The notes beneath the pieces are model-generated. The model did no database searches and had not been told where the DNA came from. It worked only from the letters and a program-made list of their open reading frames with translations. This document shows, in pieces, positions 21,572 to 51,251 of a stretch of DNA of 64,000 nt (the stretch's first letter is position 1; every line of letters begins with the position of its first letter). This DNA is from Solirubrobacteraceae bacterium. Lineage in GTDB: Bacteria; Actinomycetota; Thermoleophilia; Solirubrobacterales; Solirubrobacteraceae. The DNA lies in assembly GCA_035504435.1 (NCBI GenBank), contig DATJRV010000083.1, positions 22,242 through 86,241 on the forward strand, in the 5' to 3' direction. Made by a program: the position numbers and the translations under genes.

Positions 21572-22026
21572 GCAGCGCCCTCGTCGAGCCTCTCGCGCAG
21601 CAGCGCCAGCGCGTCTGCGTAGCCCGCCGGCCCGCGCCCGGAGATGGTGGCGAAGCACAGCTCGCGAATCACCGACACCCGCCGCCACGGCTCACGGTGC
21701 TCGACGTCCGACAGGTGGATCTCCAGCGCGGGCAGGCCGGCGATCTCGAGCGCGTCGCGAATCCCCCACGCGTAGTGCGTCCACGCGCCCGGGTTCAGGA
21801 TCAGCGCGTCGGCCCGATCGCGCAGGGCGTGCAGGTGCTCCACGAAGTCACCCTCGTGGTTGGTGTGGAAGAAGCGCGTCACGAGCCCCAGCTCGTGGGC
21901 CTGCGATTCGATCTGGCGCTCCAGCTCGACCAGCGTGAGCGTGCCGTACAGCAGCGGATCGCGGCGTCCGAGCTGGTCCAGGTTGACCCCGTGCATCACC
22001 TCGATGCGCCACGCGCGCGCGCTCAC
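21568..22026 (-). CDS. aroQ: Type II 3-dehydroquinate dehydratase
   Basis: HGVNLDQLGRRDPLLYG, NHEG, NPGAWTH, EIHLSD. Confidence 0.97.
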   Translation of the reverse strand: MSARAWRIEVMHGVNLDQLGRRDPLLYGTLTLVELERQIESQAHELGLVTRFFHTNHEGDFVEHLHALRDRADALILNPGAWTHYAWGIRDALEIAGLPALEIHLSDVEHREPWRRVSVIRELCFATISGRGPAGYADALALLRERLDEGAA

Positions 22027-23639
22027 GGCAGGAGCTCCGCCACCGCTGCGCGCACTTCCGCCTCAGACACCGCGCAGCCATGCTGCACCTCGCCGGGGGC
22101 TCGCACCAGCACGAACGGGACCGTGTCGGTCGAGGTGCGCTTCTTGTCCTTCGCCATCGCCCCCAGGATCGCATCCAGCGACACCCCCTCATCATCTTTG
22201 TCGTTCTCGAGCGTCACAGGCAGGCCGCGCGCGAGCATCAGCGCGCGCAGCTGCTCACGCAGCTGTGGCTGCCCCGAAAGGGTCAGCGCCGCGAGCAGGC
22301 CCAGGCCGACGGCTTCGCCGTGGCGGTAGCGCGCGTAGCCGCTGGCGGTCTCGATCGCGTGCCCTACCGTGTGCCCCAGGTTCAGCACCTGGCGCACCCC
22401 TCCGTCGCGCTCGTCGGCCGCCACCACCGCCAGCTTCGTGCGCGCGCACGCGAGGATCGTGCGCTCGTCCACCTGGTCCGCATCGAACGTGGCGCCGCCG
22501 GCGCTCACCGTCTCCCACAGCCAGCCGCCGGCGATCAGCGCCGTCTTCACCACCTCCACCCAGCCGGCCGCCAGCTCCGCGGCCGGCAGGCTCGCAAGCG
22601 TGTCCGGGTCGACCAGCACCCCCGCCGGCTGGTGGTAGGCGCCCACGTAGTTCTTCGCCTGCGGCAGGTCCACGCCGGTCTTGCCGCCGTACGCCGAGTC
22701 CACCTGCGCCACCAGCGTCGTCGGCACCTGCACCACCGGCACGCCGCGCTGGTAGCAGGCCGCGCAGAAGCCCGCCAGGTCGCCCACCACCCCACCGCCC
22801 AGCGCCACCACGTGGTCGGCGCGCGTCACGGCCGCGTCGACCATCGCCTGCCACACCCGCTCCGCGCTCGCGAGCGTCTTCTGCGACTCGCCCGCCGGGA
22901 TCGTCGCCGCGCCCGCCAGCTCGCCGATCCGCCCGCCGTACAGCCCGTGCACCGTCTCGTCGCTCACGCAAAATGCGCGCGAGCGCGCGCGGTCGAGCGG
23001 CCAGATGGCATCCAGCCACCGCGCGTCGTCCGCGCCGAGCAGCCCGCGTCCCACGAGCACCGGGTAGGACCCGGAGGCCGCGCTCGCCCACAGCATGCGC
23101 GTGCCCGCCGGCGCCGCCGCCAGCGCGCGCAGCGCGCCGAGCGCGCGCACGATCCCGCCGCGCGGCAGGCTCGGCAGGATCGCGTCGGCCAGCGACTCGT
23201 ACAGCTCCTGGCGCGCGGCATGCAGCGCAAGGAAGGCCGCACGGTCGCGCGCCAGCGGGCGCTCGGACTCCCCCGCCGCCCGCGAGGCGTCCCCACCCGC
23301 CGCGCCCACCCGCTCCCACGCCGTCTGCGCGTCCACGTCCAGCAGCACCGTCACGTGCCCCGTGAGCGCCTCGCGCACGCGCCGCGAGAGCACGCTGCCG
23401 CCGCCGAGCGCGATCACCGCGCCCGGGCGGGCGTCCGCCAGCATGCCGCACACCAGCCGCTCCTCGCGCGCGCGGAACGCCGCCTCGCCGTGCAGCTCGA
23501 ACTCGCGCGCCACCGGGTGGCCGAGCTGCTCCTCCAGCAGCGCGTCGCTGTCCAGCGCAACCACGCCCAGCGCCTCTGCTAGCTCGCGGGCGGCCGTCGA
23601 CTTGCCCGCGCCCATGAAGCCGATCAGGACGTACGCCAT
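22023..23639 (-). CDS. aroKB: Bifunctional shikimate kinase / 3-dehydroquinate synthase
   Basis: IGFMGAGKS, ALGGGSV, RPL; then GGGVVGDLAGF, PTTLVAQVDSAYGGKTG, LNLGHTVGHAIE. Confidence 0.96.
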   Translation of the reverse strand: MAYVLIGFMGAGKSTAARELAEALGVVALDSDALLEEQLGHPVAREFELHGEAAFRAREERLVCGMLADARPGAVIALGGGSVLSRRVREALTGHVTVLLDVDAQTAWERVGAAGGDASRAAGESERPLARDRAAFLALHAARQELYESLADAILPSLPRGGIVRALGALRALAAAPAGTRMLWASAASGSYPVLVGRGLLGADDARWLDAIWPLDRARSRAFCVSDETVHGLYGGRIGELAGAATIPAGESQKTLASAERVWQAMVDAAVTRADHVVALGGGVVGDLAGFCAACYQRGVPVVQVPTTLVAQVDSAYGGKTGVDLPQAKNYVGAYHQPAGVLVDPDTLASLPAAELAAGWVEVVKTALIAGGWLWETVSAGGATFDADQVDERTILACARTKLAVVAADERDGGVRQVLNLGHTVGHAIETASGYARYRHGEAVGLGLLAALTLSGQPQLREQLRALMLARGLPVTLENDKDDEGVSLDAILGAMAKDKKRTSTDTVPFVLVRAPGEVQHGCAVSEAEVRAAVAELLP

Positions 23640-24802
23640 CCGATGCGCTTCGTGTACGCGCTCAGCGCCTCGCGCACGTCGTCGATGTGGTCGCCGCCGA
23701 ACTTGCGCCGGTAGGCGTCCGCCAGCACCAGCGCGATCATCGCCTCCCCCACCACGCCCGCCGCCGGCACCGTGCACGAGTCGGTGCGCTCGCGCAGCGC
23801 CTGCGCGGGCGCGTGCGTGGCCGTGTCCACCGAGCGCAGCGGCTTGGTGAGCGTCGGCAGCGGCTTCATCGCGCCGCGCACGATCAACGGCAGGCCCGTG
23901 GTCATGCCGCCCTCCAGGCCGCCCGCGCGGTTGGTCTCGCGGAAGTAGCCGCGCTCCTGCGAGTAGAAGATCTCGTCGTGCGCCTGCGAGCCCGGCAGCC
24001 CCGCGATTGTGAACGCGTCGCCGATCGACGCGCCCTTGACCGCCTGGATCGAGCACATCGCGCCCGCCAGGCGCCCGTCCAGGCGCTCCTGCCAGGATAC
24101 GTGCGAGCCGAGCCCCGGCACCAGGCCGAAAGCCTGCACCTCGAACACGCCGCCCAGCGACTCGTTGGCCTTGCGCAGCCTGTCGATCTCCCGCACCATC
24201 GCCTGCGAGGCCTCCGCGTCCAGACAGCGCACCGGCGACTCGTCCACGTGCGCGAAGTCCGCCGCGCCGAGCGCCCGCTCGCGCGTGGGCGCGTGCACGG
24301 AGGCGATCTGGATCACGTGCGAGTGCACGCTCACCCCCAGCGCGCGCAGGAACGCCTTGCACACCCCGCCGCCCGCCACGCGCGCGGCCGTCTCGCGCGC
24401 GGACGCCCGCTCGAGGATGTTGCGCACGTCCGTCTGCTTGTACTTCAGCGTGCCCACCAGGTCCGCGTGGCCGGGGCGCGGCAGGTGCACCTCGGCGGTC
24501 GGCTGGGCGGCGTCCGCCACCGGCCACGGGCTCATGCGCTCTTCCCAGTTGGCGAAGTCGCGGTTTGCGACCTGCAGCGCGATCGGCCCGCCGAGCGTGC
24601 GCCCGTGGCGCACGCCGCCGGTGAGCTCCGCGCTGTCGCGCTCGATCTTCATGCGCCCGCCGCGGCCGTGGCCGAGCTGGCGGCGCGACATGTCGCGGTT
24701 GAGGTCCTCCGGGGTCAGCTCGATCCCCGCGGGCAGACCCTCGACGATGCACGTCAAGCCGGGGCCGTGCGACTCACCGGCAGTTGTCAAACGGAGCTCC
24801 AC
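23624..24802 (-). CDS. aroC: Chorismate synthase
   Basis: TTAGESHG, RPGHAD, ERASARETA, NRAGGLEGG, KPLPTL. Confidence 0.98.
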   Translation of the reverse strand: MELRLTTAGESHGPGLTCIVEGLPAGIELTPEDLNRDMSRRQLGHGRGGRMKIERDSAELTGGVRHGRTLGGPIALQVANRDFANWEERMSPWPVADAAQPTAEVHLPRPGHADLVGTLKYKQTDVRNILERASARETAARVAGGGVCKAFLRALGVSVHSHVIQIASVHAPTRERALGAADFAHVDESPVRCLDAEASQAMVREIDRLRKANESLGGVFEVQAFGLVPGLGSHVSWQERLDGRLAGAMCSIQAVKGASIGDAFTIAGLPGSQAHDEIFYSQERGYFRETNRAGGLEGGMTTGLPLIVRGAMKPLPTLTKPLRSVDTATHAPAQALRERTDSCTVPAAGVVGEAMIALVLADAYRRKFGGDHIDDVREALSAYTKRIGWRTS

Positions 24803-29603: not shown

Positions 29604-30059
29604 CTACCAGCTTCCGGTCGGGCAGCCCTTGTCGTTGTTGTTTTCAGTACAGCTGCGGGTCACGACACCTTCGGAGTTCCGGGTAATCGTGAACGTGTCA
29701 CCTGTCTTGTGGGCTTTGACGGTGACCGAGTATTCGTTGGCTCCAGGCGATGTCCCCGAGAGCCACGCGCCGCCGCCCGATGTTTCTTCGCTTATCGGGA
29801 TGGCTTTTTCGTAAGCGTGGATTTCTTCGGGGGTCACCTTCAAGTATTCCCCGTTGTTGTCGGTGGCGATCGTCTCCGCGGTCGTCTGCGCAGACTGGGC
29901 CAGCGACTTCGCCGACGCGTCGTAGGCCTTGTTCTTCTGGCTCAGCAGCGACGGGATGGCAATGGCGGCGAGGATGCCGATGATGAGAATAACGACCAGC
30001 AGTTCGATGAGCGTGAAACCACTCTCATCCGTTGAGCGCTGGCGCAGTCGGTACAACAT
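29604..30059 (-). CDS. pilA: Type IV major pilin
   Basis: Class III signal DESG|FTLIELLVVILIIGILAAIAIP, C-terminal Cys pair, AGGAGG RBS. Confidence 0.95.
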   Translation of the reverse strand: MLYRLRQRSTDESGFTLIELLVVILIIGILAAIAIPSLLSQKNKAYDASAKSLAQSAQTTAETIATDNNGEYLKVTPEEIHAYEKAIPISEETSGGGAWLSGTSPGANEYSVTVKAHKTGDTFTITRNSEGVVTRSCTENNNDKGCPTGSW

Positions 30060-30093
30060 TGCTTGATCCTCCTAGGATCCGGTTTGGGCGCCA

Positions 30094-30190
30094 GCCCTTG
30101 GTAATCGCCTCTTGCGGCGATGCGTCCCCCTTCGGTGAGGGCCGCCGGCTTTGCTACGCACCTGTCGATGCTTTGCCATGGCACCTCGGC
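30094..30190 (-). ncRNA. Candidate c-di-GMP-I (GEMM-I)-like riboswitch in the pilA leader
   Basis: GGCAAA-GCAUC-GACA-GGUGC-GUA-GCAAAGCC (30177-30147), then a P3-like stem and GAUUACC. Tetraloop and 3' half are non-canonical. Confidence 0.55.
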
Positions 30191-30209
30191 GCTGGCTCTG
30201 TCAGCGGCT

Positions 30210-30237
30210 GGATCGACCGGCGCACGGCGAACCTTTA
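30210..30237 (-). promoter_or_regulatory. Sigma28/WhiG-type promoter of pilA
   Basis: TAAA(30237-34)-N16-GTCGATCC(30217-10). Confidence 0.75.
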
Positions 30238-30285
30238 CGGCTGCACGGGGCGTTGGACGGATGGCCTGACGCCGCAGCGGGGGGC

Positions 30286-30546
30286 TCAGGCGGCCGGCTC
30301 GGGCGCCTGACTCGTCGCGTCCTCGCCCGTGTCGTTCCCGGCCCAGTGTGCCTGCGCGTCGACACCCGGCACACGTACGCCGCTGCCCTCGCACCACGGA
30401 CACCGGAGCGCGCTGGGGCTGGCGCCCAGGTTCGAGATCACTTGGCCGGTGCCGCGGCAGGCCATACACTCCCGCGGCTCATGGGATGCCGACTCCTGAC
30501 CGCCGCTGGAGCCGCTCTGGCCGTTGTCGGTGCTGTCGCTCGCCAC
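30286..30546 (-). CDS. Small protein with DnaJ-type CxxCxGxG zinc-finger repeats
   Basis: CMACRGTG and CPWCEGSG. Confidence 0.75.
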   Translation of the reverse strand: MASDSTDNGQSGSSGGQESASHEPRECMACRGTGQVISNLGASPSALRCPWCEGSGVRVPGVDAQAHWAGNDTGEDATSQAPEPAA

Positions 30547-30572
30547 GAGCCGACCACACTAGCGTTCCGCGC

Positions 30573-32585
30573 GTGAGCACACCCAGACGCATGGCGGAGT
30601 GGGCGCTCGTGGCTGCGATCACGGTGGGCGCGGCGGCGCTGCGCCTGGTGCACATCGGCCAGGTTCCGCCCGACCCGTTCTACGACGCGGCGGTGCGCAG
30701 CATGTCACTGTCGTGGCACAACTTCTTCTTCGGCGTGTACGACCCCGGCGGCAGCCTGTCGATCGACAAGCCGCCCGTGGACCTGTGGCTGCAGGTGATC
30801 AGCACGCAGCTGCTGGGGTACAGCTCGACGACGCTGAAGCTGCCGGAGGCGTGCGCGGGCATCGTGTCGGTGCCCGCGCTGTACGTGGTCGTGCGCCGCA
30901 TGTGGAGCGCCCCCGCGGGCATCGCCGCCGCGGTCGCGATGGCAGTGCTGCCGATCGAGGTGATCACCGCGCGCAGCGACACGATGGACGCGGTGATGAT
31001 GCTCGTGATCGTGCTCGCGCTGTGGCTCGCGGTGCGCGCGGTCGAGAGCGGGCGTCTGGCGTTCCTGCTCGCCGCCGCCGCGGCGCTGGGCGTGGCGTTC
31101 GACGTGAAGCTGCTCGAGTCGCTGATCGCGCTGCCGGGGCTCGCGGCGTTCGCCTACCTCGGCATGCCCGGCTCGCGCGTACGGCGCCTGCTGGGCCTGA
31201 CCGCGGCCGGCGCCGTGTATGTGGCGGTGGCGCTCGCGTGGCTCACCGCCACGCTGCTGTTCCCCGCGCACGACCGCCCGTACGCGATCGGCTCGACCAA
31301 CGGCAGCGCGTGGAACGCGGCGTTCGTGTTCAACGGCACAGACCGCCTGGCCGGCAAATCGCCGGAACCCGGGGCGACCGTGTACGAAGCCGGCCACCAC
31401 TACCCCGTGGCGACCCAGGAGGAGCGCGACCACATCCCGATCGTGCCGCCCTCGCCGACGCGGCTGCTGGCCACCGTCGGGCCGCTGTCCGGCGAGCGTC
31501 TGGGCCTGGAGGTGCTGGTGGCGCTGTTGCTGGGGATGCCGGCGCTCGCCTGGGGGCTGTGGGCCGAGCGCAACGGGCCGGAGCGAGATGAGGCCGAGCG
31601 GTACGGGGCCGAGCTCGGTGTGGCCGGGCGCGACGGGACCGGGCGCGGTGTGACCCCGAGCGAGAGTGTTGGGCGGCGCCGGCGCATGCGCCGGGCGTGC
31701 GCGGGCGGCCTCGGCGTGTGGATGCTGACGGGCATCGTGCTCTACAGCCACATGATCCGTCTGCACCCGCGTTACGTCGAAGCGTTCACGCCGGTCGTCG
31801 CCGCCATGCTGGGCATCGGCCTCGCGTGGGCGGCCGTCCCGGACCGCCCACCGCGAGGCTCTGGGGCGGCGAGTGGACGCCCGGCGAGCGGCGCGTCCCA
31901 GCGACCGCTGGGTTGGGAGCGTGCGCGCGTGTTGCTCCTGGTTATCACCCTGGCGGTCGTCGTGTACTACGCCGAGCGCCTCCTCTACGGCGTCGCGCCC
32001 GTGTGGTGGGTGACGCTCGCGGCGGCGCTGTGCGCAGTTGCGCTCGCCGCGCTTGCGTGGTCGCGCGGCGCTCCCTCACCGCGCGGCTCGCTGCTGACGA
32101 GCGCCGGCGTGATGGCGCTCAGCCTGGTGGCGGTGCTGGCGATCCCGTTGAAGGCGGACTTCACGGCGATCGCCGACCGCGTCAGCGACGCCGGGCTCGT
32201 CGGTCAGCTGCCGGGCGCTCAGCAGCACCCGCTGAGCGCATACCTGATCGCCCACCAAGACGGCGCCTACTACGAGGTGGCGTCCGAGTCGGCGACGGCG
32301 GTCGGCTCGCTGATCGTCCAAGACGCCCGGCCGATCCTCGCACTGACAACCTACGACGCGCGCGTGTTCACCTCCATACCCCAGCTACGGCGCCTGATCG
32401 CGCACGGCAAGGTGCGCTACGCGTTCCTGAACACGTTCTGCGTCAAGGAAGCGGCGACGTCGGTGAACCCCGCGTGCGCAGCGCCCGTGCAGTGGGTGCG
32501 CGCGCACGGCACCGACGTCTCGCTGCAGGCTGGCCTGGGGCAAGGCGGCCTCTTGTACCTGCTGCCGGGAGCCAAGACGGGATGA
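30573..32585 (+). CDS. GT39/ArnT-like (PMT_2) membrane glycosyltransferase
   Basis: DPFYDAAVRSM..SIDKPPVDLW, ITARSDTMD, GVAFDVKLL, multi-TM. Confidence 0.88.
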   Translation: MSTPRRMAEWALVAAITVGAAALRLVHIGQVPPDPFYDAAVRSMSLSWHNFFFGVYDPGGSLSIDKPPVDLWLQVISTQLLGYSSTTLKLPEACAGIVSVPALYVVVRRMWSAPAGIAAAVAMAVLPIEVITARSDTMDAVMMLVIVLALWLAVRAVESGRLAFLLAAAAALGVAFDVKLLESLIALPGLAAFAYLGMPGSRVRRLLGLTAAGAVYVAVALAWLTATLLFPAHDRPYAIGSTNGSAWNAAFVFNGTDRLAGKSPEPGATVYEAGHHYPVATQEERDHIPIVPPSPTRLLATVGPLSGERLGLEVLVALLLGMPALAWGLWAERNGPERDEAERYGAELGVAGRDGTGRGVTPSESVGRRRRMRRACAGGLGVWMLTGIVLYSHMIRLHPRYVEAFTPVVAAMLGIGLAWAAVPDRPPRGSGAASGRPASGASQRPLGWERARVLLLVITLAVVVYYAERLLYGVAPVWWVTLAAALCAVALAALAWSRGAPSPRGSLLTSAGVMALSLVAVLAIPLKADFTAIADRVSDAGLVGQLPGAQQHPLSAYLIAHQDGAYYEVASESATAVGSLIVQDARPILALTTYDARVFTSIPQLRRLIAHGKVRYAFLNTFCVKEAATSVNPACAAPVQWVRAHGTDVSLQAGLGQGGLLYLLPGAKTG

Positions 32586-51177: not shown

Positions 51178-51251
51178 GCCGGAGTAGCTCAGCTGGTTAG
51201 AGCAGCGGAATCATAATCCGCGTGTCGGGGGTTCGAGTCCCTCCTCCGGCA
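51178..51251 (+). tRNA. tRNA-Met(CAT), elongator type
   Basis: Acceptor GCCGGAG/CTCCGGC, TAGCTCAG D arm, anticodon arm GCGGA-ATCATAA-TCCGC, GTTCGAGTC T loop. G1-C72 pair argues against initiator. CCA not encoded. Confidence 0.95.

Follow-up and report, generated by a model that had tools for sequence, protein, structure and literature searches.

The stretch analysed here (the window, 64,000 nucleotides (nt) from a Solirubrobacteraceae bacterium) carries on its minus strand the type IV major pilin gene pilA (29604-30059, start codon 30059-30057), whose product matches the Pfam N_methyl family (E=3e-8) and contains the sequence GFTLIELLVVILIIG. The initial annotation had proposed that the leader of this gene holds, at 30094-30190 between a putative promoter and the ribosome-binding site, a candidate riboswitch resembling the class I riboswitches for cyclic di-GMP (c-di-GMP), also known as GEMM-I. 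The minus-strand sequence is exactly as given there, including the -10 element, and the conserved unit is longer, extending over about 140 nt from approximately 30198 (GCCAG) to 30057 (AUG). Structurally, this leader is a new GEMM-I derivative that lies outside the family by membership tests. That it is homologous to GEMM-I and adopts a functional fold we regard as almost certain.

The leader is preceded by a promoter of the WhiG/FliA (sigma-28) type. Such promoters were defined by the elements TAAA and GCCGATAA, about 15-16 nt apart and at most 200 bp from the start codon, a consensus that has been used, and mapped to start sites, for the type IV pilus genes of Rubrobacter (PMC8325347). By sequence match, the pilA leader has both elements with a spacer of 16 nt between TAAA and GTCGATCC, 150 nt before the pilA AUG, which would put the transcription start near 30203. 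The pattern T[AC]AA-N14-16-xxCGAT recurs in 36 orthologous leaders whose sequence covers this upstream region, N16 being the commonest spacing, and the -10 site in these relatives reads GTCGATGC, GCCGATGA or GCCGATAA. A scan of the leader with the sigma-70 consensus returned no sigma-70 promoter. The RsiG motif E-x3-S-x2-R-x3-Q-x3-D matched the window only once, in a spurious G+C-rich frame, and rsiG and whiG were sought no further.

Two kinds of leader upstream of the major pilin gene

A set of 80 loci with pilin homologues, drawn from species-representative genomes that all belong to the Solirubrobacterales, was compared using BLASTN and MAFFT. Conservation is strong over roughly 160 nt in front of the major pilin gene (signal peptide MLYRLRQRS.DEG), and the 140-nt leader precedes this gene in more than 50 Solirubrobacterales genomes; the minor pilin genes located downstream have no such leader. 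Mean identity to 14 relatives is 83% at the nucleotide level for the leader, 72% for the pilA coding sequence and 65% for the DNA upstream of the promoter, and the pilin protein is 64% identical at the amino acid level.

The leaders sort into two kinds, one canonical and GEMM-I-like, found in more distant relatives, the other represented by the window (the window type). Canonical relatives read GGCAAACCG-stem-GAG-stem-GGGACGCAAAGCCACGG...AGCCGGGCUGCCACC, which is textbook GEMM-I, and score above the gathering thresholds of the Rfam families RF01051 (35 bits) and RF03167 (59 bits). RF01051 matched the canonical leaders of loci L029, L020 and L030 at 41-59 bits, and RF03167 matched those of L040, L027, L078, L038 and L030 at 60-70 bits. 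The latter family (c-di-GMP-I-GGC) belongs to the same clan and gives the best scores with the relatives' canonical pilin leaders; a point change in the ligand pocket sets it apart from RF01051, as its consensus has GCGAAG instead of GCAAAG. The leaders that scored best with it (L040:2337-2417, L027:2333-2412, L078, L038 and L030) read GACGCAAAGCC, however, with an A in place of the variant-defining G. Because of this A at the distinguishing position, the RF03167 label, which comes about through Rfam clan competition, is misleading for canonical pilin leaders. GCAAAG is the motif of the relatives and also of the window (30154-30149), where the change is architectural, whereas that of RF03167 is a point change.

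Window-type leaders do not reach the family thresholds. A search of the whole window against Rfam at the gathering threshold returned tRNA only. At E<=10, RF01051 was the top non-tRNA family for two window-type leaders, L146 (22.7 bits) and L031:1566-1671 (22.2 bits), with alignments running through J1/2, P2 and GCAAAGCC; the best scores for RF01051 and clan CL00126 are thus 22.2-22.7 bits against a threshold of 35. The single-sequence fold of the window leader is unremarkable (z = -0.88), so that the window taken alone shows nothing beyond chance.

A covariance model (R1) built from 22 window-type leaders only found 80 leaders in the 81 sources searched. Its single match in the window lies at 30059-30198 (140 bits), and R1 also reached canonical leaders at 27-46 bits (E 1e-12 to 1e-6). 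In the alignment, the 5' halves of the two kinds are almost identical in their core motifs. Both have the WhiG-type promoter, the 5' GCCAG, the downstream CUGGC and a hairpin over the ribosome-binding site. The Rfam members found at the same position, the cross-matches of R1 and these common features make the window element a homologue of a bona fide riboswitch, and in this respect the kinship with GEMM-I that was initially proposed is supported.

Many relatives carry two or three major pilin genes in tandem. Every one of these genes has a leader of its own, and the leaders within one locus are sometimes of clearly different subtypes. Such loci include L031 (copies at 1556, 2366 and 3135), L073 (2339, 3209) and L045 (1628, 2362), as well as L036 and L072 with three copies each and L027, L040 and L078 with two each. 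A metagenome scan with the pattern GGCA-N14-40-GCAAAGCCGGCGG proved too loose: among the 80 matches listed, L146 is the sole real leader, located before a pilin gene, and a further match, L122, was discarded as a chance occurrence inside a coding sequence.

Contigs from soil, peat and permafrost metatranscriptomes, derived from relatives with at least 85% identity, span the 5' part of the pilin coding sequence and continue into the leader, to about 30163, so the leader is part of the pilin mRNA in these relatives. The alignable part of the contigs stops at the variable P2 loop, and one contig goes on through GCCAUGGCA. In run X15, a relative's contig of 595 nt (depth 169) covers pilin coding sequence and leader and stops 12 nt past 30163 in Illumina adapter. 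Its end just after GGCA (window ~30163-30175) hints at a discrete RNA 5' end, for instance a processing site or a reverse-transcription stop within the aptamer-like domain.

Fold of the window-type leader

To describe the fold (Table 1), 52 window-type leaders were aligned to R1. In this alignment (A4), 93.6% of the cells are paired in the proposed structure, compared with 33-55% after a shift of the partners by 1-3 columns; 22 of the 34 pairs vary on both sides, and none of 500 shuffles reached any of the observed measures. P2 was also checked independently of any alignment, by folding the segment from GGCA to GCAAAG for each leader, which yielded a single hairpin in all 51 cases (mean z -3.3) with 25 different stem ends.

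Table 1. Promoter, structural elements and sequence segments of the pilA leader in the window; pair counts refer to the 52 window-type leaders
Feature	Position	Strand	Observation
-35 element TAAA, WhiG/FliA (sigma-28)-type	30237-30234	-	read, and matched to the consensus
-10 element GTCGATCC	30217-30210	-	5 of 8 positions match GCCGATAA
5' GCCAG, possible P0 with CUGGC (30094-30090)	30196-30192	-	invariant in 51-52 of 52 leaders
P1, GGUG / UACC	30185-30182 / 30103-30100	-	4 of 4 pairs changed on both sides, e.g. UA 31, CG 9, UG 4, GC 2
J1/2, CCAUG	30181-30177	-	G30177 equivalent to Vc2 G20, aligned to the unpaired G of the RF01051 consensus
P2 closing pairs, GC / GC	30176-30175 / 30154-30153	-	near-invariant: one pair constant, one changed on one side; no covariation
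P2 internal loop, AAA / GUA		-	between closing pairs and stem
P2 stem, GCAUC / GGUGC, loop GACA	30171-30167 / 30162-30158	-	5 of 5 pairs covary
J2/3, AAAGCCG	30152-30146	-	A30152 equivalent to A47; identical in 48 of 52 leaders
P3 upper part, GCG-G-CCCUC / GGGGG-A-CGC, loop ACCGAA	30145-30137 / 30130-30122	-	95.6% paired; 4 of 8 pairs changed on both sides
P4, AUCGCC / GGCGAU, loop GCAAGA	30121-30116 / 30109-30104	-	95.5% paired
P5 ('hub'), GGG CUGGCG CCC	30097-30086	-	stem covaries, GC to AU; loop CUGGC(G) invariant
Shine-Dalgarno (SD) hairpin, GAUCCU-AGG-AGGAUC	30079-30065	-	97.6% paired; 4 of 6 pairs changed on both sides; -6.8 kcal/mol predicted
Segments as read: GGCAAA; GCAUC; GACA; GGUGC; GUA	30177-30172; 30171-30167; 30166-30163; 30162-30158; 30157-30155	-	
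Segments as read: GCAAAGCC; GGCGG; CCCUC; ACCGAA	30154-30147; 30146-30142; 30141-30137; 30136-30131	-	
Segments as read: GGGGG; ACGC; AUCGCC; GCAAGA	30130-30126; 30125-30122; 30121-30116; 30115-30110	-	
Segments as read: GGCGAU; UACC	30109-30104; 30103-30100	-	
pilA, then pilD, pilM, pilN and a pilO-like gene		-	operon order

Much of GEMM-I is kept in this fold, namely P1, the G20 equivalent, the GC/GC pairs, the A-rich internal loop, P2, GCAAAG with the A47 position, and the upper part of P3. As in RF01051 (Vc2 type), the element lies in the 5' leader of a surface-appendage gene and has a short P1 and a J1/2 that ends in the equivalent of G20, a G in 52 of 52 window-type leaders. The GC/GC closure of P2 next to the A-rich internal loop, the P2 hairpin and GCAAAGCC with its A47 equivalent are shared as well, and the upper P3 follows the pattern CGG..CCUC/GAGG..CCG or similar; the orthologous leaders are true members of that family. 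A47 has an intercalating role in Vc2 structures, and its equivalent lies within the almost invariant GCAAAGCCG junction. The P3 loop is variable, and many relatives have a hairpin inserted in it.

The basal P3 helix (AGCC/GGCU), J3/1 with C92 and the original 3' strand of P1 are lost. P4 (30121-30104) intervenes between P3 and the 3' strand of P1, and because this strand comes after P4, the core is a four-way junction of P1, P2, P3 and P4, unlike the three-way junction of RF01051. P4 has three covarying pairs, with UA replaced by CG in 8 leaders and CG by UA in 10, and the unconserved spacer between P4 and P1 measures 0-3 nt (none, G, GG, UG or GAG). The AGCC within J2/3, formerly the 5' strand of basal P3, now has no conserved partner. 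A pairing of AGCC 30150-30147 with the sole downstream GGCU (30096-30093) was rejected, with 9 mismatched cells and no compensation, and the GGCU columns covary in P5. The window type further differs from RF01051 in its internal loop, which has GUA instead of GAC, in its sub-threshold scores, and in the P2 loop, which is no conserved GNRA, the tetraloop that in type 1 members docks into a receptor in P3: in the model-based alignment the loops have 3-7 nt and only 2 of 52 are exactly GNRA, the window having GACA.

The GUA junction, the non-GNRA P2 loop and the AUCGCC/GGCGAU hairpin had been listed as non-canonical from the start, and all three are real and clade-wide. Two of the assignments made for this region have to be revised, however. 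The sequence GAUUACC, which had been set beside the GUUACC of the GEMM-I core, is not the counterpart of the Vc2 GUUACC with C92 and consists of the last base pair of P4 followed by the P1 strand; its ACC pairs with GGU in P1 and covaries, and the Cs of UACC, being paired within P1, are not C92. The AUCGCC/GGCGAU hairpin, for which a role as a mutually exclusive alternative had been considered, covaries together with P1 in this clade and is therefore part of the conserved fold.

In canonical leaders, the stretch GGGUUGCC (P3 3' strand, C92 and P1') occupies the position of the window-type P4; where canonical leaders read CCGGGUUGCCAC, the window type reads CGCAUCGCCGC, which forms P4 with a downstream strand. 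According to the alignment, the stretch of J3/1 and P1' in canonical relatives can form a hairpin with the next segment (GUUGCC/GGUGAC in L020, GCCGA/UCGGC in L029, and UGCCG/CGGCG or CUGUC/GACAG in L036 and L072). It looks like an ordinary aptamer-competing hairpin of the ancestral expression platform. A duplex-energy test of this canonical hairpin gave no difference from shuffled controls (G+C-rich) except for L030:96-180, and the evidence for it is therefore the reading of the alignment. We read the comparison as indicating that the clade fixed the competing hairpin, gained a partner for P1 beyond it, and lost the canonical closed aptamer.

As for the output, three upstream stretches, all of them invariant, are complementary to CUGGCG(CC) at 30094-30087, which is itself invariant. 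Predicted duplex energies are -13.2 kcal/mol for GCCAGC near the 5' end, -12.7 kcal/mol for GGUGCC (P1 strand and J1/2) and -12.5 kcal/mol for GCCGGC (J2/3 into P3), whereas P1 alone yields about -4 kcal/mol. None of the three pairings shows a compensatory change, and those with GGUGCC and GCCGGC mismatch wherever they vary. GCCAG/CUGGC is 98.8% pairable without covariation and is also present in canonical relatives. An alternative P1, formed by GGUGCC with GGCGCC (30092-30087), was likewise rejected, as it has no compensatory change and mismatches at variable positions. An all-against-all covariation scan of the 52 leaders revealed single columns that correlate with clade but no additional run of covarying pairs. 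P0 and P5 are treated as alternatives, because a joint pseudoknot with a 1-nt crossing loop is probably unfavourable sterically.

The SD sequence AGGAGG (30073-30068) is predicted to have its first AGG in the loop of the SD hairpin and the rest paired, and relatives carry variants of the stem such as AAACCU/AGGUUU and AUUCCU/AGGAAU. In some canonical relatives (L040:2440-2500 and similar), a 10-nt segment next to CUGGC, CCUAGGGAUC, can pair without a mismatch with the anti-SD/SD sequence GAUCCCUAGG; judged from the sequences, this pairing would be an obvious competitor of the ribosome-binding-site hairpin. A terminator scan found a single terminator-like site, at 29562-29537 after pilA, and none in the leader itself.

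Ligand sensing and alternative readings

An unpaired junction that stays invariant amid stems that turn over (the P2 stem alone exists in at least 25 versions) is the pattern that would be expected of an aptamer. That the remodelled leader still senses a ligand, with c-di-GMP as the first candidate, is the reading we favour, at about even odds. In this clade P4 and a new P1 3' strand replace the basal P3, the C92 junction and the old P1 3' strand, a remodelling of the 3' third of the aptamer. On the favoured reading, binding of the ligand at the junction would fix P1 and the junction strands (GGUGCC, GCCGGCG), and the hub CUGGCG (30094-30089) would then be left either with the 5' GCCAG as its partner or with the P5 fold. 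The choice of partner by the hub might in turn alter access to the ribosome-binding site or decay that depends on the 5' end. In this scheme the homology to GEMM-I, the fold, the pattern of conservation, the promoter type and the ribosome-binding-site hairpin are established, whereas we infer ligand binding, the identity of the ligand, the direction of regulation and the coupling of junction to output.

Several results weigh against a ligand-sensing, GEMM-I-derived leader of this form. In Rfam, no member of the c-di-GMP clan matched 29950-30400 even at E<=10, and the leader is not a member of the family. The initial annotation had itself counted the absence of such a match at relaxed thresholds among the findings that would speak against it, together with a lack of conservation in orthologous leaders; the former is what we observed, but conservation and covariation are both present in those leaders. 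G20 reads G-alpha of c-di-GMP, while C92 forms a Watson-Crick pair with G-beta (PMC6140456). One of these two base-specific ligand contacts of GEMM-I, C92, is missing. Across the 52 leaders there is no J3/1 and no conserved C in the spacer between P4 and P1, and this replacing spacer is variable in both length and sequence. Nor has the basal P3 helix a supported replacement, the sequence after P3 being AUCGCC and not GGCU. P4 sits at the position where canonical relatives hold the aptamer-competing hairpin. There is no alternative structure, supported by covariation, that would connect the junction with the ribosome-binding-site hairpin, and the complementarity to the SD mimic amounts to only 3-4 bp in the window type. 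Finally, A4 was fitted to the structure of the model and hence favours it; a plain MAFFT alignment of the 22 closest leaders has 89.4% of cells paired and nine pairs changed on both sides, with P2 misaligned there.

Given that P4 takes the position of the competing hairpin, the clade could be frozen in the ligand-free fold. The leader would then be a descendant of GEMM-I that is blind to ligand and locked in its former ligand-free fold with P4 formed, and would act constitutively through its structure, possibly serving mRNA stability, the tuning of translation via the ribosome-binding-site hairpin, or the binding of a protein or RNA, and the WhiG/RsiG promoter would be the sole remaining c-di-GMP input. 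The disappearance of C92 and the basal P3 helix is consistent with such a state, as are a P4 that is perfectly paired and covaries with P1, and the lack of any visible pair of mutually exclusive helices or of covarying alternative helices. Moreover, GCCAG, GGUGCC, GCCGGCG and CUGGCGCC, which are unpaired and invariant, complement one another, so that RNA-RNA pairing alone could explain their conservation. What makes us doubt this explanation, while granting that it is a real possibility, is that the GEMM-I ligand-contact positions (the equivalents of G20 and A47, and AAAGCCG in 48 of 52 leaders) have remained invariant while all stems turned over; a purely structural leader needs no such nucleotides unless it gained a new role. 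Another reading is a new riboswitch class, in which a four-way-junction aptamer arose from GEMM-I by capturing its own expression-platform hairpin and binds either something other than c-di-GMP, such as a linear or mixed dinucleotide, or c-di-GMP itself with the freed AGCC taking over from C92. We think this unlikely; if true, pilin synthesis would have a second signal input on top of the c-di-GMP-controlled WhiG promoter.

A change of specificity within a four-way-junction riboswitch, towards cyclic GMP-AMP (cGAMP), cyclic di-AMP, pGpG or an unrelated metabolite, we consider improbable. One half of the binding pocket has been replaced and the other retained, and rearranged variants of known riboswitch classes, such as the guanine, flavin mononucleotide and S-adenosylmethionine classes, often take new ligands. 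Yet the regulated pilin is the same as in the relatives with canonical c-di-GMP riboswitches, which argues for the same signal, and the only known cGAMP determinant, a change of G20 to A (PMC6140456), is absent: all 52 window-type leaders hold G, and the earlier suggestion of cGAMP as the ligand finds no support in them. It is more improbable still that the leader is an ordinary c-di-GMP-I member that Rfam misses through sequence drift alone. The core motifs GGCAAA and GCAAAGCC and the sub-threshold RF01051 matches of some window-type leaders would fit, but the lack of any match for the window at E<=10, the best window-type scores of 22-23 bits against 35, and the simultaneous absence of three-way junction, basal P3 helix and C92 contradict it by the membership tests. 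We attach next to no weight to a chance resemblance in which the conservation stems from DNA-level signals, such as promoter or operator palindromes, or from a hidden coding frame. The z of -0.88 for the single-sequence fold and the DNA palindrome GATCCTAGGAGGATC could be read in that way, but compensatory changes affect six separate helices, loop indels and inserted hairpins break any reading frame, bona fide Rfam matches lie at the same position in relatives, and the region is transcribed; covariation and homology refute this reading.

Related systems and neighbouring genes

Some GEMM-Ib riboswitches regulate pilus or electron-transfer genes. Like the window type, these 3'3'-cGAMP riboswitches of Geobacter are derivatives of GEMM-I, with an altered function in their case; they have G20 changed to A within an unchanged three-way junction (PMC6140456), whereas the window type keeps G20 and has its junction rebuilt. 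The canonical and remodelled leaders at the same locus constitute a natural series of riboswitch aptamer rebuilding, in which a helix and a ligand contact were swapped for what is probably the RNA's own competing hairpin. Literature searches covering the Rfam variant name and GEMM variants in this group brought up no four-way-junction form. Rfam does not see this clade, and counts of riboswitches in soil Actinomycetota are therefore too low for such elements.

In Clostridioides difficile, the c-di-GMP-II riboswitch of the pilin genes acts by transcription control. As in the window, a leader RNA of the cyclic-di-GMP type is located on a type IV pilin operon, ligand sensing being the proposed function in the window; the class II aptamer fold is unrelated, and that system has no c-di-GMP input at the level of a sigma factor. 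Riboswitch control of pilins, with an unrelated aptamer, is thus already known from this monoderm bacterium, where the riboswitch controls the operon CD3513-03 (PMC11477304).

Type IV pili are under c-di-GMP control via WhiG promoters in the sister class Rubrobacteria, the sigma factor WhiG of Rubrobacter being sequestered by c-di-GMP-RsiG (PMC8325347). This switch shares with the window a TAAA / GCCGATAA-like promoter before pil genes in a basal actinobacterial class. It is protein-based and acts at transcription initiation, whereas the RNA element of the window lies downstream of such a promoter. Two papers describe WhiG-controlled type IV pili in Actinomycetota (PMC8325347, PMC13595943), and the word 'riboswitch' occurs in neither. 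For canonical relatives there is good support that one pilin gene has both a WhiG-type promoter and a GEMM-I-type leader. The major pilin of these basal Actinomycetota is apparently under double control, by a WhiG-type promoter and by a GEMM-I-type leader RNA.

Homologues of the window pilin number in the thousands, the nearest being found in metagenome-assembled genomes of Solirubrobacteraceae and Solirubrobacterales. An exact-sequence lookup of this pilin returned no record; a near-complete copy of the window sequence is present in a wetland metagenome run. The gap between the end of a small zinc-ribbon open reading frame (ORF; end at 30286) and the pilA AUG is 226 nt. This upstream ORF (30286-30546, minus strand) encodes 86 residues with two CxxC pairs, gave weak sub-threshold Pfam matches to DnaJ_CXXCXGXG and Anti-TRAP, and ends 49 nt upstream of the pilA -35 element. 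It is divergent from an ORF for a PMT_2/YkcB-type glycosyltransferase (30348-32585, plus strand), the true start of which is probably near 30590. Directly downstream of the pil genes, a long ORF (22023-24752, minus strand) has, within its C-terminal 530 residues, domains for shikimate kinase and 3-dehydroquinate synthase; as the N-terminal 370 residues have no match, it is probably over-extended. A tRNA gene with the anticodon CAU is located at 51178-51251 on the plus strand (67 bits).

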